64,000 nucleotides of DNA, taken from an uncultured bacterium (GTDB taxonomy: Bacteria > Bacillota_I > Bacilli_A > RFN20 > CAG-826). Position 1 is the stretch's first letter; each line of letters begins with the position of its first letter. Shown here one piece after another: positions 2,803-47,815 of the stretch. The position numbers and the translations under genes were made by a program. The stretch is taken from the NCBI GenBank assembly GCA_949297445.1, contig CASFSS010000018.1, forward strand, positions 163,884 to 227,883, read 5' to 3'. Under the pieces are notes generated by a model. That model was not told the origin of the DNA. It ran no database searches and saw only the letters and a program-made list of their open reading frames with translations.

Positions 2803-2944
2803 TTGTTATTTTAATAACATCAGGACACAAAATCGTGTTACAATGTGCGTATTCAAAATCAAATATTGAATTATCCGCCAAACTCGCAATGCTTAATATT
2901 AAAAATAATATAAGTATAAGAAAAGAAAAGAGGAGATATTTATT

Positions 2945-4063
2945 ATGAGATTAGTCATCGAACGAGAAGCCTTAATAAAAGGTTTGGGTTCTATTAGCAA
3001 AGCAATTAGCTCAAAAGTTCCTATGCCAATTTTATCGAATGTAAAAATGACTCTAAACGAAAAAGGTCTAGAGCTATTAGGAAGTGATAACGATTTAGTT
3101 ATAAGAACAACTGTTCCTTATATGATTGGTGATAAAGAAATTATTCGTAATTCAAAGCCGGGATCGGCATTAGTCAGTTTTAAATATTTAAGTGATATTG
3201 TTCGTCATATGGAAGGCGAATATATCTCAATTGAAGTCATCGATGAAATTGTTTTGCGACTCGACGATGGAAAATCTAATTTCCGTCTCAATTCTATTAA
3301 GCCAGAAGAATATCCAGATATCGATTTAGAATTATTTGGAGCCATTTTTGACGTCAAAGCAAGTGATTTGTTCGCGTTGGTAGAAACCACCGCCTTTGCC
3401 GCTTCGACAAAAGACGGTAGGCCAGTATTGACGGCCATTAATTTTGATGCTCACAATAACGTTTTAACAACCACTGCGACCGATACGGCTAGATTGGCTA
3501 GAAAAAAAGTAGATATCGACGATAACATCGCCTTTTCTGTCAATATTGTTGCTAAAAAGTTTTTAGATATTGTCCATTCTTTTGAAAACGAAGAAATTGT
3601 CACTGTTGCTGTCTCTGATAAAAAGATAATCTTCTCGTTTGGATTTACCGTAATATCTGTTCGCTTGATTAATATTGATTATCCAAACACTAAAAATATC
3701 ATTCCTAAGTCATTTAATTATTATCTAGAAGTTAATTCGCGTGAGTTTTTGGCCGCCATGGAACGTGTTTCCGTTTTAAGTAGTGAACACGAAGGGGTAG
3801 TAAAACTTGTTATGACAGAAGATGAAGTAGAAATAATGTCGCGAACCGTAAGCGTTGGTTCGGCGAATGAAAAAATTAACACTTTCCAATTTTCTGGTGA
3901 ACGTTTGGAAGTCAGCTTTAAATCATCTTTTGTTTCCGATGCGATAAAGGCACTTAAATGTGAGGATGTCACCATCGCTTTTGTTGGCGAAATGAAGCCG
4001 TTTGTTGTTAAAAATGTTAAAGATGATTCAATTGATATGTTGGTGACTCCACTTAGATCATAA
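2945..4063 (+). CDS. dnaN: DNA polymerase III beta sliding clamp
   Basis: 372 aa protein directly after dnaA with a strong AAGAGGAG RBS. The N-terminus MRLVIEREAL... is beta-clamp like. Confidence 0.95.
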   Translation: MRLVIEREALIKGLGSISKAISSKVPMPILSNVKMTLNEKGLELLGSDNDLVIRTTVPYMIGDKEIIRNSKPGSALVSFKYLSDIVRHMEGEYISIEVIDEIVLRLDDGKSNFRLNSIKPEEYPDIDLELFGAIFDVKASDLFALVETTAFAASTKDGRPVLTAINFDAHNNVLTTTATDTARLARKKVDIDDNIAFSVNIVAKKFLDIVHSFENEEIVTVAVSDKKIIFSFGFTVISVRLINIDYPNTKNIIPKSFNYYLEVNSREFLAAMERVSVLSSEHEGVVKLVMTEDEVEIMSRTVSVGSANEKINTFQFSGERLEVSFKSSFVSDAIKALKCEDVTIAFVGEMKPFVVKNVKDDSIDMLVTPLRS

Positions 4064-4145
4064 AAAGAGCGTTTGGGACTTCAAAAAAATAATTTAGGCA
4101 AAAAAATCAAATATTCAAAAACTAAGCATTTAGCAGCTAAAAAAT

Positions 4146-4179
4146 AAGGGAATAAATATATATTCCCTTTTTATTTTTT
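4146..4179 (+). terminator. Rho-independent terminator after dnaN
   Basis: AAGGGAATA / TATTCCCTT 9-bp stem (4146-4169) followed by TTTTATTTTTT. A TGgTAAAAT extended -10 promoter for yaaA-recF follows. Confidence 0.55.
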
Positions 4180-4218
4180 GTGTGGTAAAATATCCCCGAG
4201 TGATGAAATGAGTTTTTG

Positions 4219-4440
4219 ATGAATAAGAAAATTGAAGAAATTGTTATCCGCGATGAGTACATCACCTTAGGCTCTCTTCTAAAATTTTGCCACGTTATTA
4301 GTTCAGGAGGAGAGGTAAAAATGTTTCTTGGCCAAGGCGCAGTAAAAGTTAATGGTGTAAACGAGACGCGCCGAGGAAGAAAATTATATCCTGATGATGT
4401 AATCGAGGTGGAAACAAGAACTTTAAAAATTGTTAAGTGA
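4219..4440 (+). CDS. yaaA: S4-domain RNA-binding protein YaaA
   Basis: Small protein between dnaN and recF as in Bacillus. It carries the S4-like motif GAVKVNGV.... Confidence 0.8.
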   Translation: MNKKIEEIVIRDEYITLGSLLKFCHVISSGGEVKMFLGQGAVKVNGVNETRRGRKLYPDDVIEVETRTLKIVK

Positions 4441-12399: not shown

Positions 12400-12482
12400 G
12401 CGCCATCGCGACGGACGATTTATGAACCAGGTCAGGATAGGAATATAGCAGCCTTAAGTATTGAATTCGTGTGCGGTGGTTT
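12400..12482 (+). ncRNA. ffs: Small signal-recognition-particle RNA (4.5S/scRNA type)
   Basis: Domain IV consensus ACCAGGUCAGG..AGGAAUAUAGCAGCC at 12427-12452. The 5' GCCAUCGCGAC pairs with the 3' GUGUGCGGUGG to close the helix. A TGtTATAAT extended -10 lies at 12386-12394 and a U-tract follows at 12481-12486. In Bacillus the same RNA sits next to tadA. Confidence 0.6.
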
Positions 12483-12491
12483 TTTTAATGT

Positions 12492-36969: not shown

Positions 36970-39585
36970 ATGAAAAAGTCGCAACGTAAAACACCATATT
37001 TTGATGCCTTAAAAAAATATTTGTCAGTCGAAGTTTCTCCTTTTGATGTGCCAGGACATCATATGGGTAATGTCCCGAACAAATTAAAAACATTAGTTGG
37101 TGAAAATGTTTTTCGTGCGGACGTCAACGCTCCTATCGGCATGGACAATTTAGCCGCTCCTCGCGGCCCGCTTTTAGAGGCACAACGATTGATGGCGGAT
37201 TTTTGTGGAGCGAGTCGGGCTTTTTTCTTAATTAACGGCACAACTTCGGGCATCATTGCGATGATAATGACTGCTTGTCGAGCTAACGACCGAATTATTT
37301 TGCCACGCAACGTTCATAAATCAATTATTAATGCTTTGGTTTTAAGTGGAGCCATTCCGACTTATATTATGCCCCGCTTAGATTCTGAATTAGAGATTGC
37401 CAATCAACCATCGGTAGATGATTACGTTAGGGCAATGAATCGTTATCCGTCCGCTAAAGCTATTTTTGTTATTAATCCAACTTATTTTGGTTCCGTTATT
37501 GATTTGAAGCAATTGGTAGAAATTGCTCACGCACGAGGAATCGCGGTTTTGGTAGATGAAGCGCATGGCGCCCATTATTATTTCAACAAAAATGGTCCGC
37601 TATCAGCTATGGAATGTGGAGCGGATATGTCTAGTGTTTCCTTCCATAAGACAGGTGGCAGTTTGACTCAATCGAGCGTGTTATTATTAAACGAGGGTAT
37701 TTTCTCGCGCCGAGAAATACAAAAAACATTAAATATATTAAATACAACTTCACCTAATACATTGTTGCTTGCTAGTTTAGACACCGCTCGTGAATATGTG
37801 GCTATGCATGGCCAAGCAAACATGAATCGCGTTTTTGAATTAAGTGATTTTGCGAGAGAACAAATTGATAAAATTAAAGGCTTTAAAACAGTTGGCAAAG
37901 ACCATTTTGTAAAATACGGTTCTTACGATTATGACAAAACAAAACTAGTAATCGCGTTAGAACACCTCGACATAAACGGTTTTGAATTATATAAGTTTTT
38001 AAAAGTCGATTATAACATTCAAGTGGAACTAGCCGAGACCTATGTCATTATGGCCATTTTAGCAATCGGTACAAAGAAAAAGCATATTTTAGCTTTAATA
38101 AAAGCGTTAAAAGATATTTCTAGAAAACATTATAAAAAAAGCAATGTTCGCGATGAACATTCGTTTGGAATTGATTTCCCATATATGCTTATGCGACCTC
38201 GTTTGGCCTATCACGCCGATGGGAAAAAAGTGCCATTAGAGAAAGCCGTTAATGAAATTGCTAAAGAGCAATTGATGATTTATCCACCGGGAATACCGCT
38301 AATTGTTCCTGGCGAGGTTTTCACTAAGGAATTAGTGGATCGCATTAAAACATATAAGAAGATGAACGGAACTATATTGAGCGATTATAAAAATGCTGAC
38401 AATGTCAGCGTGATTGACCGTGACAAATGGCAACAATTCCATTTGTTTAAAAACAAACTCAATGACTATTTGATTAAAAAGATTACCACGCCACGAGGCG
38501 ATGATTATGTGATGCCTTTTGAAGGCGAGGCGCACGAAGGAACAATTATTTTACTTCCCTTCCGAAAAGACACCTGGCGAGAAAATGCTAAGCTGGCTCA
38601 AAACGCTTATCGACAAGTTATTATGGCCATCGCTAAATATGAAAAAGTATATGTCGGCATTCATCCCTCAATTTATAATTCCTTGATTGATAGCTATAAA
38701 GATGTTGACAACATCGTTCCTATCAAAATTCGTTATAACGACGCTTGGGCGCGCGACAATTGTCCTATTTTTGTCATCAACAAGGAGAACAAGATGCGTG
38801 CGGTCGATTTTCGCTTTAATGCATGGGGCGGCGAAGTAGATGGTTTATATAACAATTACAAAGAAGACGATTTGATCGCTAAGGCAATGGCAAAATATTT
38901 TGGTGTAGAAAGATATTATTTAGAAAACTTTGTCTTAGAAGGTGGCAGCATCCATGTCGATGGCAAAGGTACTTGTTTGGTGACGGAGGCATGCCTATTG
39001 TCAAACGGTCGTAACCCGCATTTAAACAAATTGCAAATAGAAGAAACCTTAAAAATTTATCTAAATGTTTCTAAAGTTATTTGGTTAAAACACGGTATCT
39101 ATTTAGACGAGACAAACGAGCATGTAGATAATATCGCTTGCTTTGTTCGTCCTGGCGTAATTGCTCTAGCCTGGACAAACGATAAAAATGATCCACAATA
39201 TGAATATTCCCTCTCTTGTTACAACATTTTGAAAAAAGAGCATGATGCGGAAGGCAATCCTTTTAAAATAGTAAAAATTATTAACCCCGAGCCAATATAT
39301 ACGAACAAAGAAGACACGAAAGGAATTCAAGCTGGTCGCTACTCGGCTGTGCCGCGCTTAGTAGGCTCACGCTTAGCGGCTAGTTACATAAATTTCTATC
39401 AAGGTGAAAAGTTTGTCATTATGCCTGGTTTTGGTGTAAAAGAAGATGGTCCGGCCTTAAAAAGAATGAAACGACTATTTCCTGAAAAGGATGTCATCCA
39501 AATCAATTCGCGTGAAATTTTATTAGGCGGTGGAAACATTCATTGCATCACTATGCAAGTGCCTAAAACTCATAAAGGAGAATAA
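36970..39585 (+). CDS. Fused arginine decarboxylase (Orn/Lys/Arg decarboxylase, PLP fold-I, Bacillus SpeA type) and agmatine deiminase
   Basis: Residues 1 to ~490 match Bacillus-type SpeA (FDVPGHHMG...PRNVHKS..SFHKTGGSL). Residues ~510-871 match agmatine deiminase (MPFEGEAHEGT...WARDNCPIFV...GGGNIHCITMQ with catalytic Cys). It is one uninterrupted ORF of 871 aa. Confidence 0.85.
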   Translation: MKKSQRKTPYFDALKKYLSVEVSPFDVPGHHMGNVPNKLKTLVGENVFRADVNAPIGMDNLAAPRGPLLEAQRLMADFCGASRAFFLINGTTSGIIAMIMTACRANDRIILPRNVHKSIINALVLSGAIPTYIMPRLDSELEIANQPSVDDYVRAMNRYPSAKAIFVINPTYFGSVIDLKQLVEIAHARGIAVLVDEAHGAHYYFNKNGPLSAMECGADMSSVSFHKTGGSLTQSSVLLLNEGIFSRREIQKTLNILNTTSPNTLLLASLDTAREYVAMHGQANMNRVFELSDFAREQIDKIKGFKTVGKDHFVKYGSYDYDKTKLVIALEHLDINGFELYKFLKVDYNIQVELAETYVIMAILAIGTKKKHILALIKALKDISRKHYKKSNVRDEHSFGIDFPYMLMRPRLAYHADGKKVPLEKAVNEIAKEQLMIYPPGIPLIVPGEVFTKELVDRIKTYKKMNGTILSDYKNADNVSVIDRDKWQQFHLFKNKLNDYLIKKITTPRGDDYVMPFEGEAHEGTIILLPFRKDTWRENAKLAQNAYRQVIMAIAKYEKVYVGIHPSIYNSLIDSYKDVDNIVPIKIRYNDAWARDNCPIFVINKENKMRAVDFRFNAWGGEVDGLYNNYKEDDLIAKAMAKYFGVERYYLENFVLEGGSIHVDGKGTCLVTEACLLSNGRNPHLNKLQIEETLKIYLNVSKVIWLKHGIYLDETNEHVDNIACFVRPGVIALAWTNDKNDPQYEYSLSCYNILKKEHDAEGNPFKIVKIINPEPIYTNKEDTKGIQAGRYSAVPRLVGSRLAASYINFYQGEKFVIMPGFGVKEDGPALKRMKRLFPEKDVIQINSREILLGGGNIHCITMQVPKTHKGE

Positions 39586-39587
39586 GT

Positions 39588-40454
39588 ATGTCAGTTAAAG
39601 TTGCGATTACACAAATGAGTTGTTCAGCCAATATTCAAGCCAATATCCACAAAGCAATTTCGCTCGTTGAAAAGGCAGCGAAAGAGGGCGCAAACATTAT
39701 TTTGTTACAAGAGTTATTTTCTTCTTTATATTTTTGTCAAGTTGAAGACTATAATAATTTCTCTTTAGCGGAAAACAAAAATGATTCAGCTTTAATAAAA
39801 ACTTTTCAAGAAGTAGCCAAAAAATATAATGTTGTTTTGCCAATTTCCTTTTTTGAAAAAAGCGGAGCTAATTATTTTAATTCCTTAGTTATGATAGATG
39901 CCGATGGAACCAATTTAGGTTTATATCGAAAGATGCATATTCCTACGGGGCAATGCTACGAAGAAAAGTTTTATTTTTCTCCTGGTGATACCGGCTATAA
40001 GATTTTTAAAACTAAATTCGGTAAAATTGGAGTTGGCATTTGCTGGGACCAATGGTTTCCCGAAGTGGCTAGAATTCTCGCTTTAAAAGGCGCGGAATTG
40101 CTTGTCTATCCGACCGCTATCGGCAGTGAACCAGTGTTGGTTAAAGATTCGATGATTCATTGGCGAAACACCATGTGTGGTCATGCTGCCGCTAATATCA
40201 TTCCTCTTTTAGCCTCTAATCGGGTTGGTGTAGAAAGTGTCGCTGGTTCAACCATGACTTTTGGTGGCTATTCTTTTATTGCCAATCAATATGGCGAAGT
40301 TGTGAAAGAATTGTCGAGAGTCGAAGAAGGGTATGCCATATACGAATTTGATTTAGATAGCATCGATAAAGATCGTATTTATTGGGGAGTATTTCGAGAT
40401 AGGCGAATCGATAGTTATTCACCTCTTCTAGAGTATGGAAACGAAGACGAATAA
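39588..40454 (+). CDS. aguB: N-carbamoylputrescine amidohydrolase (nitrilase superfamily)
   Basis: CN-hydrolase catalytic triad context (E in ILLQELF, K in RKMHIP, C in GVGICWDQWFPE). It lies immediately downstream of the deiminase fusion. Confidence 0.85.
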   Translation: MSVKVAITQMSCSANIQANIHKAISLVEKAAKEGANIILLQELFSSLYFCQVEDYNNFSLAENKNDSALIKTFQEVAKKYNVVLPISFFEKSGANYFNSLVMIDADGTNLGLYRKMHIPTGQCYEEKFYFSPGDTGYKIFKTKFGKIGVGICWDQWFPEVARILALKGAELLVYPTAIGSEPVLVKDSMIHWRNTMCGHAAANIIPLLASNRVGVESVAGSTMTFGGYSFIANQYGEVVKELSRVEEGYAIYEFDLDSIDKDRIYWGVFRDRRIDSYSPLLEYGNEDE

Positions 40455-41316
40455 GGTAGCTTTAGCGATTCAAGGCGGTGGCGTGCGTGGCGCGTTTGCT
40501 AGTGGAGTGTTAGATGCCTTTTTAGAAGAAGGCTTAACCTTTCCTTATATTATTGGTGTTAGTGCAGGAGTTTTAAATGCCTGCAATTTTGTTTCAAAAG
40601 ATTTTGGCCGTTCTTATATCGTTTGTTCTAAATACATGCAAGACAAACGATTTTACGGGAGAAAAGTTTTCTTAAAAACACATTCATATTTTAATTTTGA
40701 TTTTTTGTTTAATGAATTGGCAAAATCAGAACTTCCGTTTGATTACCAAACATTTGCAAATTCCCCCACGGAAATTGTGGCGGTGGCCACTAGGTGTAAA
40801 GACGCCAAACAAGCATATTTTTATAAATCCAAAATGCCCGTGGATGAATTTTTAAATTTGGCGTGCGCCGCTAGTGCCTCGTTACCATTATTATCAAAAA
40901 AAGTTGTTATAGATGATGAAGAATATTTAGATGGTGGCATTGTAACGCCCCTACCTTTGGAAAAAGTTAAAGAAGATGGCTACGAAAAGATATTAGTAAT
41001 TTTGTCGCGTCCAATTGGCTTTCGCAAAACCAAAAGCCATCGGAATGTTTTAATTTCGAAAATGCCAACCTTTTCCGGGACGACCTATCGCTTTTTACGC
41101 AAGGCATTAAGAGATACATATTTATCCTATAATGAATGCATTGATAAAATTGAAAATTCGAGCGATAAAAAGAATATTTATATCATTGCTCCCAAAGAGA
41201 CATACGACATAAAAGTAACCGAACAAGATACAACTAAAATTGAAAGATTATATTTAGACGGCAAAGAGATAGCAAAGAAAGAGATGGAGGCTATCAAAAA
41301 GTTTTTATATGAATAA
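40435..41316 (+). CDS. Patatin-like phospholipase
   Basis: Oxyanion GGGVRG and nucleophile GVSAG are present. Confidence 0.8.
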   Translation: METKTNKVALAIQGGGVRGAFASGVLDAFLEEGLTFPYIIGVSAGVLNACNFVSKDFGRSYIVCSKYMQDKRFYGRKVFLKTHSYFNFDFLFNELAKSELPFDYQTFANSPTEIVAVATRCKDAKQAYFYKSKMPVDEFLNLACAASASLPLLSKKVVIDDEEYLDGGIVTPLPLEKVKEDGYEKILVILSRPIGFRKTKSHRNVLISKMPTFSGTTYRFLRKALRDTYLSYNECIDKIENSSDKKNIYIIAPKETYDIKVTEQDTTKIERLYLDGKEIAKKEMEAIKKFLYE

Positions 41317-42247
41317 AAACGATATTAAAAATAGAAGAAGACCCGCTAGACGAAAAAAAGAAAATAATTTTCGTGAATGGGTAGTAAAAACCTCTAATAT
41401 AACCTTATTTGCTTTTTTAGAAGAAGTTTATCCATCCTTATCAAGAAATAATATTAAACACCTTCTATCATCGCATCGAGTTTCCATTCATGGGGCGATG
41501 GTTTCGCAATTTGATTTTATACTTAATAAGGGTGATTCGGTAATTGTTTTTCAAGACCCAATTAAGCGAAGCGGTTCAAAAAATAAATTGCCGATAATTT
41601 ATGAAGATGATGAATTAATTGCCATTGATAAACCATCGACGCTTTTAAGCGTTTCTAGCGATAAAGAAAAGCGGAATACCGCTTATCGACTAGTGATGGA
41701 TTATGTACAAAGTAAAGATAGACATACGCGCATTTATGTAGTGCATCGTATTGACGAAGATACTTCTGGCGTATTGCTTTTTGTCAAAAACGAAAAGCTT
41801 GCGCGCGAGCTTCAAGACAACTGGCAATCGTTAGTTAAAAAAAGAGGCTATTACGCAGTAGTTGAAGGTAAGATGGAAAAATCTACGGGAACTTATGTCG
41901 ATTATCTAAAAGAAAACAAATTAAATTTGATGTATGTTACCGACGATAAAAAGTATGGTAAGTTATGCAAAACATCATATGAAGTAATTCGTGAATCAGA
42001 AAAATATTCCTTGTTAGATATTAGCATTGATTCAGGCCGTAAAAATCAAATTCGCGTTCAATTAGGTTACCGAAATCACCATGTCTTAGGCGATGATAAA
42101 TATGGTGAGCCAGCTAACCCGCTAAACCGTCTTGCCTTGCATGCTTACGAACTATCTTTACTCCATCCTCAAACAAAGAAATTGATGAAATTTCGTTCAA
42201 AAATGCCAAAGGAATTTATGGCTCTTTTTGATAAAAATAAAAAATAA
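41309..42247 (+). CDS. RluA-family pseudouridine synthase (RluC/RluD-like) with basic N-terminal extension
   Basis: S4-like domain followed by the catalytic motif HRIDEDTSGVLLF. Confidence 0.85.
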   Translation: MNKNDIKNRRRPARRKKENNFREWVVKTSNITLFAFLEEVYPSLSRNNIKHLLSSHRVSIHGAMVSQFDFILNKGDSVIVFQDPIKRSGSKNKLPIIYEDDELIAIDKPSTLLSVSSDKEKRNTAYRLVMDYVQSKDRHTRIYVVHRIDEDTSGVLLFVKNEKLARELQDNWQSLVKKRGYYAVVEGKMEKSTGTYVDYLKENKLNLMYVTDDKKYGKLCKTSYEVIRESEKYSLLDISIDSGRKNQIRVQLGYRNHHVLGDDKYGEPANPLNRLALHAYELSLLHPQTKKLMKFRSKMPKEFMALFDKNKK

Positions 42248-42324: not shown

Positions 42325-43857
42325 ATGGTTTTAGAATGGGTTAAAAAATTAAAAGACGCTGCACTATCTACGTTACCAGTTATCATTGTAGTGATAGTCG
42401 TTTTTTTGGTTGATCGTTTTTTATTAAATCAATCGTTAACGAACAATGACATTATTCTTTTTGCTGTCTCAGCTGTTTTATTGACTATTGGTATGTGGCT
42501 ATTCACCATCGGGGCTGAAGCCTCAACCACTAAACTAGGTGAATATGTAGGCTCAACTTTGACGAAGAGAAAAAGCATGCTTCTTTTAGTCATAATCATC
42601 TTTTTGGTAGGCATATTAATTACTGTTGCGGAACCCGATTTATCCGCTTTATCTAATCAGGTGCCCATCAATAGTTATGTATTAATTTTTACCATTGGAG
42701 TTGGCACCGGTTTATTTTTAGTAGTCGGTGCCATTCGTATCATTTTTCAAAAAAGTTTGAAGGTATGGTTATTAGCTTTTTATGGCTTGCTTTTTGCCGT
42801 TGCTTGTCTACTAGATTCGCAATATATTCCGATATCGTTTGATAGTGGAGGCGTTACAACCGGTCCTATCACTGTGCCTTTCATTTTAGCCCTCGGCGTA
42901 GGTATTGCCACTAGCCGTGGCGGTAATAAGACTAACTCCGACTCATTCGGCTTAGTTGCCTTTGCAAGTGTTGGTCCAATAATAATGGTCATGATTTTAT
43001 CGCTAATTTTGCAAGGTTCGGGGCAAGATTTGACCATGTCGACTTCAGAAACTACCGACAATATTTGGCTCTTGCTTAAAGATGGTTTTGTTGACGCTAG
43101 TATCAATGTTTTGATTTCCTTATCGCCACTAGCGATATTCTTTTTAATCTTTAATTTCATCTTCATAAAATTGCCAAGAAAGACTTTGATAAAAATATTA
43201 GTCGCTTTGATTTATACCTACGTTGGATTAGTTTTGTTCCTTGGCTCGGTCGAAGCTGGCTTTATGAATATGGGTACTCAATTAGGAATAATTTTAGGTG
43301 CAGATAGTTCGATGCTATGGCTACTTCTTGTGATAGGCGCTACGCTAGGTGTTGCCGCCATATTTGCCGAACCAGCAGTTCATATTCTTACTGAACAAGT
43401 TGAAGAGGTGGGCGACGGCGTCATTCATAAAAGTGTCGTATTGATTGCTTTAGCAGTCGGTAATGGCTTGGCAATTGTGCTTGCTTTGCTACGCATCATT
43501 TATCAATTTCCCCTTTTATATTATTTAGTTCCTGGCTATATTTTGGCCTTTTTGTTGTCCTTCTTGGTTCCTGATATTTATAGTGCCATTGCATTTGATA
43601 GTGGAGGCGTTGTTTCCGGACCAATGAACTCAACCTTTTTAGTTCCTTTTGCTACAGGCGTTGCCACGGCTATTTCGTTGACCGATGGAGCAATTATGGA
43701 ATACGCTTTCGGCATGATTGCTTTAGTGGCGTTAATGCCTTTGATCTCAATCCAATTAGTCGGTCTATCGGCCGTGCTTAAAAGGCGCGCCGAACTTCAT
43801 ATTGCGCGAACAAGAGTGCGAGAAGAATTCGACAATCAAATTATTCATTTTGAATGA
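42325..43857 (+). CDS. DUF1538-type polytopic membrane protein with internal tandem duplication
   Basis: Two homologous halves each carry FDSGGV(T/V)(T/S)GP. An identical 18-nt string TTTGATAGTGGAGGCGTT occurs at 42839 and 43593. There are about 12 TM helices. Confidence 0.6.
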   Translation: MVLEWVKKLKDAALSTLPVIIVVIVVFLVDRFLLNQSLTNNDIILFAVSAVLLTIGMWLFTIGAEASTTKLGEYVGSTLTKRKSMLLLVIIIFLVGILITVAEPDLSALSNQVPINSYVLIFTIGVGTGLFLVVGAIRIIFQKSLKVWLLAFYGLLFAVACLLDSQYIPISFDSGGVTTGPITVPFILALGVGIATSRGGNKTNSDSFGLVAFASVGPIIMVMILSLILQGSGQDLTMSTSETTDNIWLLLKDGFVDASINVLISLSPLAIFFLIFNFIFIKLPRKTLIKILVALIYTYVGLVLFLGSVEAGFMNMGTQLGIILGADSSMLWLLLVIGATLGVAAIFAEPAVHILTEQVEEVGDGVIHKSVVLIALAVGNGLAIVLALLRIIYQFPLLYYLVPGYILAFLLSFLVPDIYSAIAFDSGGVVSGPMNSTFLVPFATGVATAISLTDGAIMEYAFGMIALVALMPLISIQLVGLSAVLKRRAELHIARTRVREEFDNQIIHFE

Positions 43858-43868
43858 GGTATCATTTA

Positions 43869-44348
43869 ATGGCTGAAAAGAAAGAAAAGGAAAAAATAAC
43901 CACTCGTCTTAAGAAGAAAGTACAAGCGATTAGTGGAAAAAAGGAAGAGTTAGAGTCAGCGCTCGCTCCCTCTTTTGAAGATAGCCATCACATATCACCT
44001 TTAAAATTGTTTGTCATCATTGTTCCTTATGGTCAAGCTGGCGCAATTATTAAGCGATTAGAATCGATGGAGGCCTCTTCTTCTTTTATTATTTCTGCAC
44101 AAGGCACAGGTTCAAAAGATATCTATGATGTAATCGGTCTTAGCGATACTAAAAAACAAGTGATTTTATCGGTTCTCAAAGAAGAAAATGTTCCTGAGTT
44201 TAAACGTTTATTAGAAGAGCGTTTTTCAATTTCTAGGGCAGCAAAAGGAATTGCTTTTTCAATTAAAATAACCTCTTTAGTGGGTGTTACCATCTATAAA
44301 TTTTTATCAAATACGCAAGTGGTGAGGGAGAAAAAGAAAAATGGTTGA
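43869..44348 (+). CDS. PII (GlnB)-like small regulatory protein, paralog 1, with N-terminal Lys-rich extension
   Basis: ATG at 43869 follows a GAGGT RBS. The C-terminal ferredoxin-like PII fold region has a GIAFS motif. It is coupled to the DUF1538 gene. Confidence 0.5.
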   Translation: MAEKKEKEKITTRLKKKVQAISGKKEELESALAPSFEDSHHISPLKLFVIIVPYGQAGAIIKRLESMEASSSFIISAQGTGSKDIYDVIGLSDTKKQVILSVLKEENVPEFKRLLEERFSISRAAKGIAFSIKITSLVGVTIYKFLSNTQVVREKKKNG

Positions 44349-44697
44349 AACAAAAGATGAAATTAAAGCAACTATAAATAACGAAAACGCTGAATTGGTT
44401 TTGGTTATTGTCAACAACGGATTTGCGGATTTAGTGATGGAGGCCGCCAAGCGTAAAGGCGCGCGAGGGGGAACAATTTTACACGCTAGAGGTACTGGAA
44501 ACAAAGAGATGGAAAAGTTTTTTGGTATCTCAATTTCTCCTGAAAAAGAAATTGTTTTAATCTTAGTGAAAAAAGATCAAAAAGATGAAATTCTTAGCGA
44601 AATATATAAAGATGCTGGATTAGATACTAACGGGCAAGGAATTGCCTTTTCTTTGCCGGTGAGCGATGTCGTTGGCGCCACATTAGGCGATAATTAA
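44341..44697 (+). CDS. PII (GlnB)-like small regulatory protein, paralog 2
   Basis: 118 aa. LVLVIVNNG...KRKGARGGTILHARGTG...GIAFS resembles the PII-like proteins that pair with DUF1538. Start overlaps the paralog 1 stop. Confidence 0.55.
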   Translation: MVETKDEIKATINNENAELVLVIVNNGFADLVMEAAKRKGARGGTILHARGTGNKEMEKFFGISISPEKEIVLILVKKDQKDEILSEIYKDAGLDTNGQGIAFSLPVSDVVGATLGDN

Positions 44698-44718: not shown

Positions 44719-44746
44719 TCACAATTTTTCAATCGAGAAATTGTGA
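44719..44746. promoter_or_regulatory. Perfect 9-bp inverted repeat TCACAATTT-N10-AAATTGTGA between the PII-like gene and yfhO
   Basis: Read directly from the sequence. The stem is AU-rich and is followed by TATATATTTCTT, so it is either an operator or a weak terminator. Confidence 0.4.
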
Positions 44747-44779: not shown

Positions 44780-47700
44780 ATGGAACTTGTTTTCATAACA
44801 CACAAAAAATTTTATCGAGAATATGTCTATCCTAAATTAGGATTTTTGCGAAACATACATTCGTTTTTTTATTATGTTCTTTTCTTAATTTTAGTTGGTT
44901 TTTTGTTTTTTGGTTTTGCTTTGGCTAAATCATATTTTTCAACTCCCTTTACTGGCGATTATTCGCAACAGGGAATACCTTTTGCGTACAATTTTTATGA
45001 TACATGGTGGACAGCCTTTTATAATTTCAATTTCCCGAATTGGGATATGAATGTTTTTTTAGGTGCAGATAGCATCGAGGCAAATACCTTTTACGGTTTG
45101 TTTTCTCCATTTACCTTTGTCACGCTTTTATTTCCGCGCGAACTAATACCGCAAGTTATTGCTATGTGTTCAATAGCGAGGATGGTTATCGGTGGCCTTT
45201 TCTTTCGCATATATTTGAAATATTTAGGAACGCAAGAAACAACCGCGCGAATTTTTTCCGTCGCTTATGCTTTCTTTGGTTGGACAGCTTATCACTTATG
45301 GTTTAACAGTTTTTATGAAGTAGCAACCTTTTTTCCATTAATTCTTTTTGGCATCGAAAAGGTATTGCGAGAAAAACAAATATGGGCCGTTTCGCTTGGC
45401 TTCTTTTTGCTAGGCATTTCTAATTATTTCTTCTTTTTGACGGCAGGCATTTTTGGTGTGTTTTATGCCGGCTTCCGCTTTTTTCAAACCTATAAGACGC
45501 GAACCAATAAAGAAAATCTAGCGGTTTTTGGTTTAGGAGTACTAGGTTTTGCCACAGGTATTTTGATGAGTGGCGTAGTGACCATTCCAGCGATAATTGC
45601 TTCCTTTAATATTGCTCGATATGAGGACTCAACCTATTGGAGCGATATCGTTAATGCCTTTAAACTAAAACAGTTTGATGAAGCCTTTAATTTAATATTC
45701 CTTTATTGGGGTGGAGATAATTATGGTTACCGGGCCTTTTATTCGATTGCTTCATTCTTCTTTCCAACTATATCAGACCGCTTTGTCAACATTGTTCGCG
45801 ATCAATATTTTGATAATTATGGTTCGTCGATCTTTATATTCACTCCCGGCATCATCCTCTTTTTTGCTTCGATGTGGATTTCTATGAAAGAAAGAAAAAT
45901 TTCTCATTTTATTGCCATTGGAGTTTTGACAATAGCTTTATTTATTCCTTTCTTTTATTACTTGTGTGGGGCGATGTCGATTGGCTATGGCCGTTGGGAA
46001 ATAGTAGTTGCTATCTCTGCTTTAACGTATGTAGCAATTTCCTTCGATAAGCGGCATATGGTGCCTCGTGCGGTCATTGTTGTGGCAGGTTTATTATCTA
46101 GCGCAATAATGATTGGATCTTATTTTTATGCGATGTGGCTTGACATGTACTATACGCGCATCGAAAGCTATTCTGAAATAGTTATTTTAGTGGTATATCA
46201 AGTCGTATTGACCTTGGTAACTACCGGGCTACTAACCGGCTTTTGGAAGCACAAAAAGCTACAATCAGTTTTGCTTACTATATTGACTTTTGAAATAACT
46301 GTTATGGGTACCTTGGTGGCCAATATTCACGGAACAACCAACTATATGTATTCGTTAGAAGGTGGCTATATAAATGTCCCAGTAGAAACGAAAATAATTC
46401 AAGAAATAGCCGCAAAAGACGATTCTTTTTATCGCATTCAATCGACACGAGCGTACACCTCAAACGACAATATCATGATGGTTGAAAACTATAATGGTGT
46501 TTCCACTTTCCATTCTTTTTATAATGTAGAAACCGATGATTTTCAAAGGATGAGTCACATTTTAAAAGGCGACAATACATGGATTGGTTCGGGCTATGAA
46601 AAACGAATTAATTTAGATGCTTTTTTAGGAGTGAAGTTTTATATATTGAAAGATAGTGACTACACATATTCTTATACGGCTGATGGCGAAAATTATTCTG
46701 TAAAATTTACCCCCAATGTTCCTCTTGGCTATACGCGTATCGATGATGACGCTATTGATGATGGATATTCTGTTTACGAAAATGAGCATTATATCGATTT
46801 TGCTCTCTCTTATGATGTTTTATATTACAAACATAATTGTGCTAATTCGTATTATAACGCCTTCCACACTTCTACTAATCATATATCCTCTACCTTGCGT
46901 AACGAGGAGGCTTATTTTAAAGGAGCGATTTTAGATGATGAAGATGTTGGGGAGATTTCCCGTTTATATCCGAATGCTTTTTCATTGGAAGAAGCTCCGA
47001 CAAGAGAGATGGCTATCGCTAGTGTCACAAGAACTTATTATTATGTTGAGGAATCTTTCAACCCGTTGAATCCTGATAAATATCTTGAAAGCGGACAAGT
47101 TATTTCTAGCGGAGATATTTCTAAATACGAAGCGAGCGATTTATATATTGTGTTAGAACCTAGAACAGGAGATTCTTTCCCAATGTCCCCTAACGGAATG
47201 TATTATATAATCAGTTATCGTATAACTAGTGAATCGGCCGCGACTATCTACTTAATTGGCGAAGATGAAAACGGCAATTCAAAAGTTGTGGTTTATGATA
47301 ATTTGCACAATAACGATAGCGATGGTACCAAATACTTGCGAGCCTTTTATCCAACTGAAGAAATAAAGAAAATAATTATTTGTCCGTCTTCGGAAGCGAT
47401 CGATTTAAGTGCACAATTATATTATGAAGATATCGATACGACTTTCGCCCGCATTGATGGCGCGAAAGAATATGGTGTCAGTAATGTCGAGCAAGGGGTT
47501 GATTACTTTTCTTTTGATTCTTCGTACGATTCCATTCGCTATATAATTACTCAAATTGCCTATGGCGAGGGTTGGAAAATTAAAGCGACTGATGAAAATG
47601 GGAATGTTTATTACCCAAAGACTTATAATTCGCAAGGTGGCTTTGTCGGCTTTGTAACTCCTACGATCGGCTTAATTCATTATGAAATGACCTATGAAAC

Positions 47701-47815
47701 GCCTTATGTAAAAGTTGGTGTTGTTTGTTTTGTTACTTCATTTGTTGTCTTAAGTGGCGCTTCGGTTGCCATTTATATGTATAACAAAAAGAAAAAAACT
47801 AAGTTAATGAAGTAA
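44780..47815 (+). CDS. yfhO: YfhO-family GT-C membrane glycosyltransferase-like protein (1011 aa)
   Basis: About 13 N-terminal TM helices are followed by a large extracytoplasmic domain and a final C-terminal TM. Architecture and length fit YfhO. Confidence 0.55.
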   Translation: MELVFITHKKFYREYVYPKLGFLRNIHSFFYYVLFLILVGFLFFGFALAKSYFSTPFTGDYSQQGIPFAYNFYDTWWTAFYNFNFPNWDMNVFLGADSIEANTFYGLFSPFTFVTLLFPRELIPQVIAMCSIARMVIGGLFFRIYLKYLGTQETTARIFSVAYAFFGWTAYHLWFNSFYEVATFFPLILFGIEKVLREKQIWAVSLGFFLLGISNYFFFLTAGIFGVFYAGFRFFQTYKTRTNKENLAVFGLGVLGFATGILMSGVVTIPAIIASFNIARYEDSTYWSDIVNAFKLKQFDEAFNLIFLYWGGDNYGYRAFYSIASFFFPTISDRFVNIVRDQYFDNYGSSIFIFTPGIILFFASMWISMKERKISHFIAIGVLTIALFIPFFYYLCGAMSIGYGRWEIVVAISALTYVAISFDKRHMVPRAVIVVAGLLSSAIMIGSYFYAMWLDMYYTRIESYSEIVILVVYQVVLTLVTTGLLTGFWKHKKLQSVLLTILTFEITVMGTLVANIHGTTNYMYSLEGGYINVPVETKIIQEIAAKDDSFYRIQSTRAYTSNDNIMMVENYNGVSTFHSFYNVETDDFQRMSHILKGDNTWIGSGYEKRINLDAFLGVKFYILKDSDYTYSYTADGENYSVKFTPNVPLGYTRIDDDAIDDGYSVYENEHYIDFALSYDVLYYKHNCANSYYNAFHTSTNHISSTLRNEEAYFKGAILDDEDVGEISRLYPNAFSLEEAPTREMAIASVTRTYYYVEESFNPLNPDKYLESGQVISSGDISKYEASDLYIVLEPRTGDSFPMSPNGMYYIISYRITSESAATIYLIGEDENGNSKVVVYDNLHNNDSDGTKYLRAFYPTEEIKKIIICPSSEAIDLSAQLYYEDIDTTFARIDGAKEYGVSNVEQGVDYFSFDSSYDSIRYIITQIAYGEGWKIKATDENGNVYYPKTYNSQGGFVGFVTPTIGLIHYEMTYETPYVKVGVVCFVTSFVVLSGASVAIYMYNKKKKTKLMK

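Follow-up and report, generated by a model that had tools for sequence, protein, structure and literature searches.

The window analysed here is a 64,000-nucleotide (nt) stretch of a contig from an uncultured bacterium (CASFSS010000018.1). It contains three consecutive genes that encode a membrane protein of the DUF1538 family (ORF1) and two small proteins of the PII (GlnB) superfamily (ORF2, A-type, and ORF3, B-type). We consider it probable, by analogy with GlnK–AmtB and SbtB–SbtA, that in this module a heteromeric PII-like sensor gates a cation/proton transporter. The three open reading frames (ORFs) are as follows.

42325–43857, forward strand: ORF1, a fused DUF1538 (UmpA-like plus UmpB-like) putative membrane transporter of 510 amino acids, predicted to be an inverted repeat of 7+7 transmembrane helices
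43854–44348, forward strand: ORF2, an A-type PII-like protein of 164 amino acids from the listed start and 159 amino acids from the ATG at 43869
44341–44697, forward strand: ORF3, a B-type PII-like protein of 118 amino acids that matches Pfam P-II

The positions of these ORFs agree exactly with a first-pass annotation of this DNA. It described a pseudo-symmetric membrane protein coupled to two PII-like proteins, and likened the arrangement to SbtA/SbtB.

The three genes are strictly linked in a fixed order. We surveyed 88 loci, comprising the window, 7 genome loci, and 80 metagenome loci (L001–L087 plus the window). The transporters are 40–75% identical to ORF1 (40–47% for the metagenome loci), and the loci are partly redundant, with 55 clusters left at 90% and 36 at 70% identity. 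Domains were called with hidden Markov models built from A-type, B-type, and DUF1538 alignments. Eight of the 88 loci are cut by contig ends, and linkage is counted on the other 80. An A-type and then a B-type domain directly follow the DUF1538 gene in all 80 loci with enough downstream DNA. A and B are encoded as two genes in 25 of these loci and as one A–B fusion protein (~220–270 amino acids) in 55. The genes lie −19 to +32 nt and −20 to +20 nt apart. Fusion is recurrent, with at least three changes between the fused and two-gene states on a crude tree, which argues for a hetero-assembly rather than a homotrimer. The first-pass reading, a duplicated membrane protein tied to two PII-like proteins in the manner of SbtA/SbtB, is much better supported with these loci.

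The linkage is also found by other routes. Reverse look-ups of two B-type proteins give the order DUF1538, an ORF of ~150 amino acids without a Pfam label, and P-II. Nine of 72,556 plasmid records match ORF1, and exactly the same nine match ORF3, at adjacent coordinates (tblastn). On plasmids of Methylocystis rosea and Chelativorans (Alphaproteobacteria), a split pair of DUF1538 genes is followed by one B-type PII, which is 49–51% identical to ORF3. This lone protein is better conserved relative to ORF3 than the transporter is relative to ORF1. Because the split systems hold a single B-type PII, the B-type is the ancient partner of DUF1538 and the A-type a later, fast-evolving paralogue.

The flanking genes vary, with 43 families upstream and 40 downstream, including an oxidoreductase, PrsW, a sigma factor, YitT, YfhO, an acyltransferase, and AraC. 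Since they are not conserved, the three genes alone constitute the module, which is self-contained. In a representative library, a 654-residue protein (P0331) carries two DUF1538 domains followed by an A-type domain in one chain. This single case could join transporter and regulator as a Rosetta-stone fusion, or result from a lost stop codon or an assembly error.

ORF1 matches Pfam DUF1538 (PF07556) in two stretches with 384.7 bits (cut-off 22.6, E = 1.1e-115), and DUF1538 is the sole Pfam family that matches it at E ≤ 0.01. The family proposed in the first-pass annotation is thus established. DUF1538 is abundant, with at least 7,987 matches in a profile search. ORF1 matches no PDB sequence, and its AlphaFold2 (AF2) model has no significant Foldseek match to SbtA, Amt, or any other known transporter (best TM-score ≤ 0.2). 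Across Pfam, PDB, and Foldseek, ORF1 is assigned to no well-characterised family. In this respect the earlier label of an uncharacterised transporter stands, but one DUF1538 member, UmpAB, has been assayed as an antiporter (PMC5484666).

In Halomonas zhaodongensis, the products of umpA and umpB form a heterodimer in the membrane, and expression of the pair alone in E. coli KNabc gives Na+(Li+,K+)/H+ antiport that depends on pH (PMC5484666). Therefore, a cargo class can be proposed for DUF1538. In addition, DUF1538 is among the pH-adaptation features of a machine-learning study (PMC13255231). ORF1 and UmpAB share the Pfam family, two homologous units of ~7 transmembrane helices, a UmpA-like N-terminal half, and an order colinear with the split pairs. 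They differ in that UmpAB consists of two separate subunits, whereas ORF1 is a single chain of 510 residues. Whole ORF1 scores 157.7 and 130.7 bits against the NCBIfam UmpAB equivalogs NF041627 and NF041628, below their cut-offs of 490 and 500. With the same models, the N-terminal half scores 93.9 bits against UmpA and 76.4 bits against UmpB, and the C-terminal half 77.1 and 68.3 bits, respectively.

The features of ORF1 to which the following paragraphs refer are listed here.

42325–43020, forward strand: N-terminal half (residues 1–232), UmpA-like, ortholog of gene 1 in split DUF1538 pairs
42628–42639, forward strand: AEPD motif (residues 102–105), with an AF2 helix break at residues 102–103; E and P are invariant in every half across phyla
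42838–42855, forward strand: FDSGGV motif 1 (residues 172–177), copy 1 of an 18-nt string; the Asp is invariant and a helix break (GP) follows
43021–43065, forward strand: acidic linker (residues 233–247), predicted extracytoplasmic, helix-free at residues 233–246 in AF2, with 0.27 Lys plus Arg (K+R) and 2.9 Asp plus Glu (means of 88 proteins)
43066–43854, forward strand: C-terminal half (residues 248–510), ortholog of gene 2 in split DUF1538 pairs
43366–43377, forward strand: AEPA motif (residues 348–351), the C-terminal counterpart of AEPD
43594–43611, forward strand: FDSGGV motif 2 (residues 424–429), copy 2 of the 18-nt string
43777–43854, forward strand: C-terminal tail, basic then acidic, predicted cytoplasmic, with a mean K+R of 4.3, ending in FDNQIIHFE

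The two halves are 30% identical to each other (E = 5e-22). In blastp against the Methylocystis pair, the N-terminal half matches gene 1 better (34%, E = 1e-37; gene 2, 27%, E = 6e-20), and the C-terminal half matches gene 2 better (40%, E = 5e-46; gene 1, 24%, E = 3e-19). Therefore, ORF1 arose by the colinear fusion of two old paralogues. Judged from these comparisons, the duplication is ancient rather than recent, and the paralogous gene pair was fused later. The internal tandem duplication described earlier is thus right as to the two homologous halves, but these go back to an ancient gene pair that became fused, and they are predicted to be antiparallel.

An 18-nt string, TTTGATAGTGGAGGCGTT, is found twice, from 42838 and from 43594, where it encodes FDSGGV at residues 172 and 424. 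Both the string and the motif had been noted before, and both are present exactly, one copy in each half. Given the same peptide, six identical codons have a probability of ~0.002 under the codon usage of the window. In the closest relatives (proteins 73–75% identical), 14–15 of the 18 bases are common to the two copies, and in the next-closest (58%) 11 of 18. Identity at all 18 bases is found in just 2 of the 61 loci having identical hexapeptides. The string is therefore rejected as a sign of recent duplication or gene conversion. The identity is an invariant peptide combined with a coincidence of codon choice; it is neither a conserved nucleotide feature nor, as the first-pass annotation had it, a mark of the duplication.

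The AF2 model of ORF1 (predicted local distance difference test, pLDDT, 87; predicted TM-score, pTM, 0.87) is all-helical, with ~seven transmembrane helices in each half. Its helix breaks coincide with the AEPD/AEPA and FDSGGV-x-x-GP motifs. A cross-phylum alignment that spans Firmicutes and Alphaproteobacteria shows three residues without variation in any half, the Glu of xEPx, the Arg of RI, and the Asp of xDxGG, a set that fits an ion-coupling site.

The K+R content of the loops is reversed between the halves. In the 88 proteins, the N-terminal and C-terminal halves have 0.14 and 2.80 in loop L1–2, 3.34 and 0.73 in loop L2–3, 1.75 and 0.25 in loop L6–7, and 0.27 and 4.33 in the tail, respectively. 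By the positive-inside rule, the halves are predicted to be antiparallel. ORF1 would then be an inverted repeat (7+7) whose two termini face the cytoplasm and whose acidic linker lies outside, and the pseudo-symmetry suggested earlier is supported by the homologous halves and the reversed bias. Pairs of the DUF606/EmrE type are similar in occurring as split homologous pairs or fusions, in the odd number of transmembrane helices per half, and in the reversed K/R bias. They differ in family and size, and the antiparallel 7+7 arrangement of DUF1538 is read from charge bias.

The cytoplasmic tail predicted for ORF1 ends in a motif, [DE][DE]x-I-I-x-[FL] (window 43828–43854, residues 502–510), that is present in 83 of the 88 loci, mostly 0–1 residues from the C-terminus. 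Its variants follow lineage, QIIHF/QIIDF in two-gene loci and D[DA]IIEL in loci with fused A–B. The motif is a candidate docking peptide, but the IIxF/L motif is rejected as a universal one, since the alphaproteobacterial split systems and Paraclostridium do not have it.

ORF3 matches Pfam P-II (PF00543) with 37.3 bits (cut-off 25), and its best PDB sequence match is Arabidopsis PII (2o66, E = 9e-6). ORF2 has no Pfam, NCBIfam, or significant PDB match, but it is homologous to ORF3. The two proteins are 27% identical (E = 1e-10), and their family profiles align with 97.9% probability (E = 3.7e-13; hhalign). In the AF2 model of ORF2, residues 50–140 form a β-α-β-β-α-β core with pLDDT ~90 (strands 50–58, 75–83, 100–109, and 133–138; helices 62–71 and 110–124). 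The core is flanked by a basic, low-confidence N-terminal helix and an extra C-terminal helix. The top Foldseek matches of the model are GlnK1, PII, SbtB, and PotN, with a probability of 1.0 and a TM-score of ~0.7 normalised by target length. Both proteins are therefore assigned to the PII (GlnB) superfamily as divergent members, ORF2 on the basis of its profile and predicted fold. The first-pass annotation had called them a paralogous PII-like pair, and the PII assignment is supported in both cases, by Pfam for ORF3 and by hhalign and Foldseek for ORF2.

The B-type family comprises ~1,451 clusters. ORF2 has 10 relatives by direct search and ~1,141 representatives at E ≤ 1e-10 by profile search. 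The profile of the ORF3 family gives at most 30 bits with any solved structure and 100–186 bits with family members, and thus detects no B-type structure in the PDB. PDB 9p1x ('P-II family nitrogen regulatory protein', with a short T-loop) is rejected as a B-type member at 30 bits. Two further matches fall below significance or cut-off, ORF3 to NF045581 (PG0541 family transporter-associated protein; 17 bits, E = 0.0043, cut-off 45) and the ORF2-family profile to YaaQ (4rle, DarA/PstA c-di-AMP receptor; E = 0.8, 12.7 bits).

Both types have lost the canonical PII signatures. Two PROSITE-type patterns, the T-loop Tyr51 signature Y-[KR]-G-[AS]-[AE]-Y and the B-loop signature [ST]-x3-G-[DY]-G-[KR]-[IV]-[FW]-[LIVM], are each found in 0 of 80 A and 0 of 80 B domains; the E. 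coli GlnB control is positive. By alignment, the T-loop region of both types is 6 residues shorter than in canonical PII. No basic residue stands at the positions of R38, K90, R101, and R103. Compared with E. coli GlnB, ORF3 has GQGIAF in place of GDGKIF and GATLG in place of RIRTG. The B-type instead conserves GAxGGT (67 of 80 B domains), RGTG, EKE, and GxGxAF. A GIAFS motif is present at residue 132 of ORF2 and residue 100 of ORF3, where it aligns with the PII B-loop/β4. The earlier statement that both proteins end in GIAFS is correct as to the motif but not as to its position, which is not terminal. Neither protein contains cysteine, so a redox loop of the SbtB kind is excluded. With the T-loop ~6 residues short and the basic residues that hold the ATP phosphates not retained, probably neither protein binds MgATP/2-oxoglutarate as its ligand in the way that canonical PII does.

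These features suggest the following mechanism. ORF1 would be a secondary ion transporter of the DUF1538/UmpAB family, with two 7-transmembrane halves fused head-to-tail in antiparallel orientation, each half supplying three invariant residues located at helix breaks, the Glu of xEPx, the Arg of RI, and the Asp of FDSGG. Its most likely activity is exchange of a monovalent cation (Na+/K+/Li+) for H+, serving salt and pH homeostasis; this cargo would be that of UmpAB, the sole source of the proposal. ORF2 and ORF3 most likely hetero-oligomerise on the cytoplasmic face of the transporter, and their assembly would open or close it on a small-molecule signal, as GlnK plugs AmtB, SbtB locks SbtA, and PotN acts on PotABCD. 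What the sequences show is the identity of the domains, their paralogy, how the fusion arose, the strict linkage in a fixed order, the repeated joining of A to B, and the missing PII signatures. By analogy with such systems, we infer physical binding, a direction of regulation, a ligand, and an oligomeric state and stoichiometry.

Several points weigh against this mechanism. The transfer of function from UmpAB to ORF1 would be long-range (94–158 bits versus cut-offs of 490/500), and the UmpAB assignment itself comes from one study, by KNabc complementation and everted vesicles (PMC5484666). The contact between the PII-like proteins and the transporter is proposed from genomic context and analogy. 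The canonical nucleotide-binding residues are gone, so the PII-like proteins might sense no ligand. The alignment used for the AF2 model of ORF2 included ORF3-type sequences, and the PII fold is thus not fully independent of the homology. Finally, no riboswitch or conserved neighbour points to a cargo.

The regulatory architecture could be the same and the cargo another, e.g., bicarbonate, ammonium, a polyamine, or another metabolite, with the PII-like pair reporting the matching metabolic state. This would accord with the scores of ORF1 far under the UmpA/UmpB equivalog cut-offs, and with the well-studied PII-type partners AmtB, SbtA, NrtABCD, and PotABCD, all of which carry nitrogen or carbon nutrients rather than Na+/H+ (established knowledge; PMC10945777). 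A putrescine-synthesis cluster lies upstream in the window, but the polyamine genes are not conserved neighbours across loci. Moreover, Foldseek gives no significant SbtA, Amt, or other known transporter, the invariant Glu/Asp/Arg predicted to be membrane-embedded suits ion coupling, and the sole experimental datum for the DUF1538 family is cation/H+ antiport (PMC5484666). We therefore regard a different cargo as unlikely, though it is the nearest competitor of a cation/proton transporter.

The PII-like proteins could alternatively be obligatory structural subunits, i.e., a cytoplasmic cap for assembly, stability, or the transport cycle, like the KtrA/TrkA rings on KtrB/TrkH. The strict 1:1(:1) linkage in a conserved order would be expected of such subunits, and the loss of canonical ligand residues and PII signatures in both types, the fast evolution and extra helices of the A-type, and the one transporter–A fusion (P0331) point the same way. 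However, umpA and umpB alone are enough to produce antiport when expressed in E. coli; no PII partner is mentioned in the UmpAB paper, whose clone stopped at umpB and whose constructs carried no PII gene (PMC5484666). Since UmpAB works without any PII, a regulatory role is likelier than an essential structural one. In addition, the glycine-rich GAxGGT/RGTG/GxG set of the B-type, with 49–51% identity between Firmicutes and Alphaproteobacteria, is conserved to a degree that suits a preserved ligand pocket better than a scaffold. An obligatory structural role seems to us quite improbable.

Reverse signalling, in which the transporter serves as a sensor or as an anchor in the membrane and holds back the PII-like pair, whose actual targets would be soluble enzymes or regulators elsewhere, has a precedent in canonical PII biology, where AmtB–GlnK sequesters DraG, and the always downstream PII-like genes encode proteins that could leave the membrane, but a third conserved partner gene is found in 0 of 80 loci and the A–B fusions and possible transporter fusion point to a dedicated complex, which makes it very improbable.

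The junctions between the three genes are tight, and two short elements are read at and after them.

43856–43860, forward strand: GAGGT, Shine–Dalgarno-like, read from the sequence, 8 nt 5' of the ATG at 43869 and within the ORF1 stop region
44719–44746, forward strand: weak terminator-like hairpin from a consensus scan, with 12 pairs, AT-rich, 3 G–C pairs only, 22 nt past the ORF3 stop

As listed, ORF1 and ORF2 share an ATGA overlap (43854–43857), and ORF2 and ORF3 share an 8-nt overlap, ATGGTTGA (44341–44348). The true start of ORF2 is probably the ATG at 43869, 15 nt past the listed one, because GAGGT lies 8 nt 5' of it and the homologues all begin with MAEKK/MADKE. With this start, the gap to ORF1 is 11 nt and the ribosome-binding site lies inside the end of ORF1, so coupling is still tight. 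The translational coupling noted in the first-pass annotation is thus retained, with the start of ORF2 refined. From the spacing and its conservation, ORF1–ORF3 would form a single transcription unit, of which the hairpin is a possible end. A consensus scan finds no promoter in the 77-nt gap upstream of ORF1. Rfam, run on the whole window at the gathering threshold, finds no riboswitch and, as the sole family, a bacterial small signal recognition particle RNA at 12400–12485 (+, 54.9 bits). Rfam on 14 loci with long upstream gaps finds tRNAs and one fluoride riboswitch only.

The neighbours of the module in the window are not widely conserved. A patatin-like phospholipase gene (40435–41316, +) and an RluA-type pseudouridine synthase gene (41309–42247, +) overlap each other and end 77 nt before the module; this synteny is kept in the closest relatives (L001–L005, L095–L098) and not more widely. 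Downstream, a gene for a YfhO-family membrane protein of 1,011 residues (44780–47815, +) is found in 7 of 71 loci (L001–L004, L006, and L012 among them), a lineage-specific synteny outside the conserved unit. Farther upstream, an ORF of 871 residues (36970–39585, +) combines an Orn/Lys/Arg decarboxylase (residues 8–461) with an agmatine-deiminase-type PAD_porph domain (residues 515–865), and is directly followed by a CN_hydrolase, N-carbamoylputrescine amidase-like (39588–40454, +). From these domains, 36970–40454 looks like a compact arginine-to-putrescine pathway with the first two steps in one polypeptide.

Two neighbourhoods in other loci are of note. In L035, the fluoride riboswitch (2931–3003, 40.7 bits) precedes a gene of the Na_H_Exchanger family (399 residues, 3108–4307), which lies 621 nt upstream of the DUF1538 gene; this is one anecdotal adjacency. 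In eight loci, the next gene downstream encodes a YitT-family membrane protein with a C-terminal DUF2179 domain (e.g., L051, 4753–5754). We take DUF2179 to belong to the GlnB-like clan; if so, YitT would be another membrane protein with a PII-like domain beside the module.

The proposed regulation of a transporter by a PII-like protein is familiar, and the module can be compared with three known systems. With SbtA–SbtB, it shares the order of a transporter gene followed by a PII-like gene, the match of the ORF2 model to SbtB structures, and the proposed logic of cytoplasmic gating. It differs in that SbtA is unrelated to ORF1 in sequence and, according to Foldseek, in fold, and in having two PII-like proteins or a tandem fusion where SbtB is single. 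SbtB also carries a C-terminal cysteine pair in its redox R-loop that ORF2 and ORF3 lack, and the T-loop of the latter is shorter. With AmtB–GlnK, the module shares a P-II superfamily protein that is encoded beside, and presumably acts on, a membrane transporter. The differences are that ORF2 and ORF3 carry neither the Tyr signature of the T-loop nor that of the B-loop, nor equivalents of R38/K90/R101/R103, and that the partner is DUF1538 instead of Amt. PotN is a single protein that acts on an ABC ATPase, whereas the DUF1538 module is a proposed heteromeric pair with a secondary transporter. PotN (PDB 7o4x), the PotABCD regulator of Lactobacillales, is likewise a PII-like protein of Firmicutes dedicated to a transporter, and is among the top matches of the ORF2 model.

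Parts of the module already carry the PGAP labels 'DUF1538 domain-containing protein' and 'P-II family nitrogen regulator'. We found no paper on the DUF1538–PII connection in the literature searched, a search without most subscription journals in which the module figures solely as an antiporter by itself, and no solved structure for ORF1, ORF2, or ORF3 is detectable by sequence or Foldseek search. The unstudied parts are the heteromeric or tandem pair, the non-canonical site, and a transporter fold without a detectable solved relative. More tentatively, as a possibility that we hold below the mechanism proposed above, the module may belong to an undescribed branch of PII signalling. In this branch, a dedicated A/B sensor, often tandem-fused, would have lost the canonical ATP/2-oxoglutarate site, bind another ligand, and gate an inverted-repeat fold without a solved relative, thereby controlling cation/pH homeostasis across a large part of the Firmicutes of the gut, with an older one-PII form in Proteobacteria.

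PII proteins rank with the most widespread signal transducers. Every pair of PII-like protein and transporter that has come to be understood (GlnK–AmtB, SbtB–SbtA, and PotN–PotABCD) has brought to light a new metabolite that is sensed and a new mechanism of gating. The labels 'P-II family nitrogen regulator' beside DUF1538 are probably misleading about nitrogen. The module looks like an unstudied regulated ion-transport system that is common in gut bacteria. It would offer a test system for the working of hetero-oligomeric or tandem PII proteins and for the architecture of DUF1538 transporters, and for how gut anaerobes may tie ion and pH homeostasis to their metabolic state.

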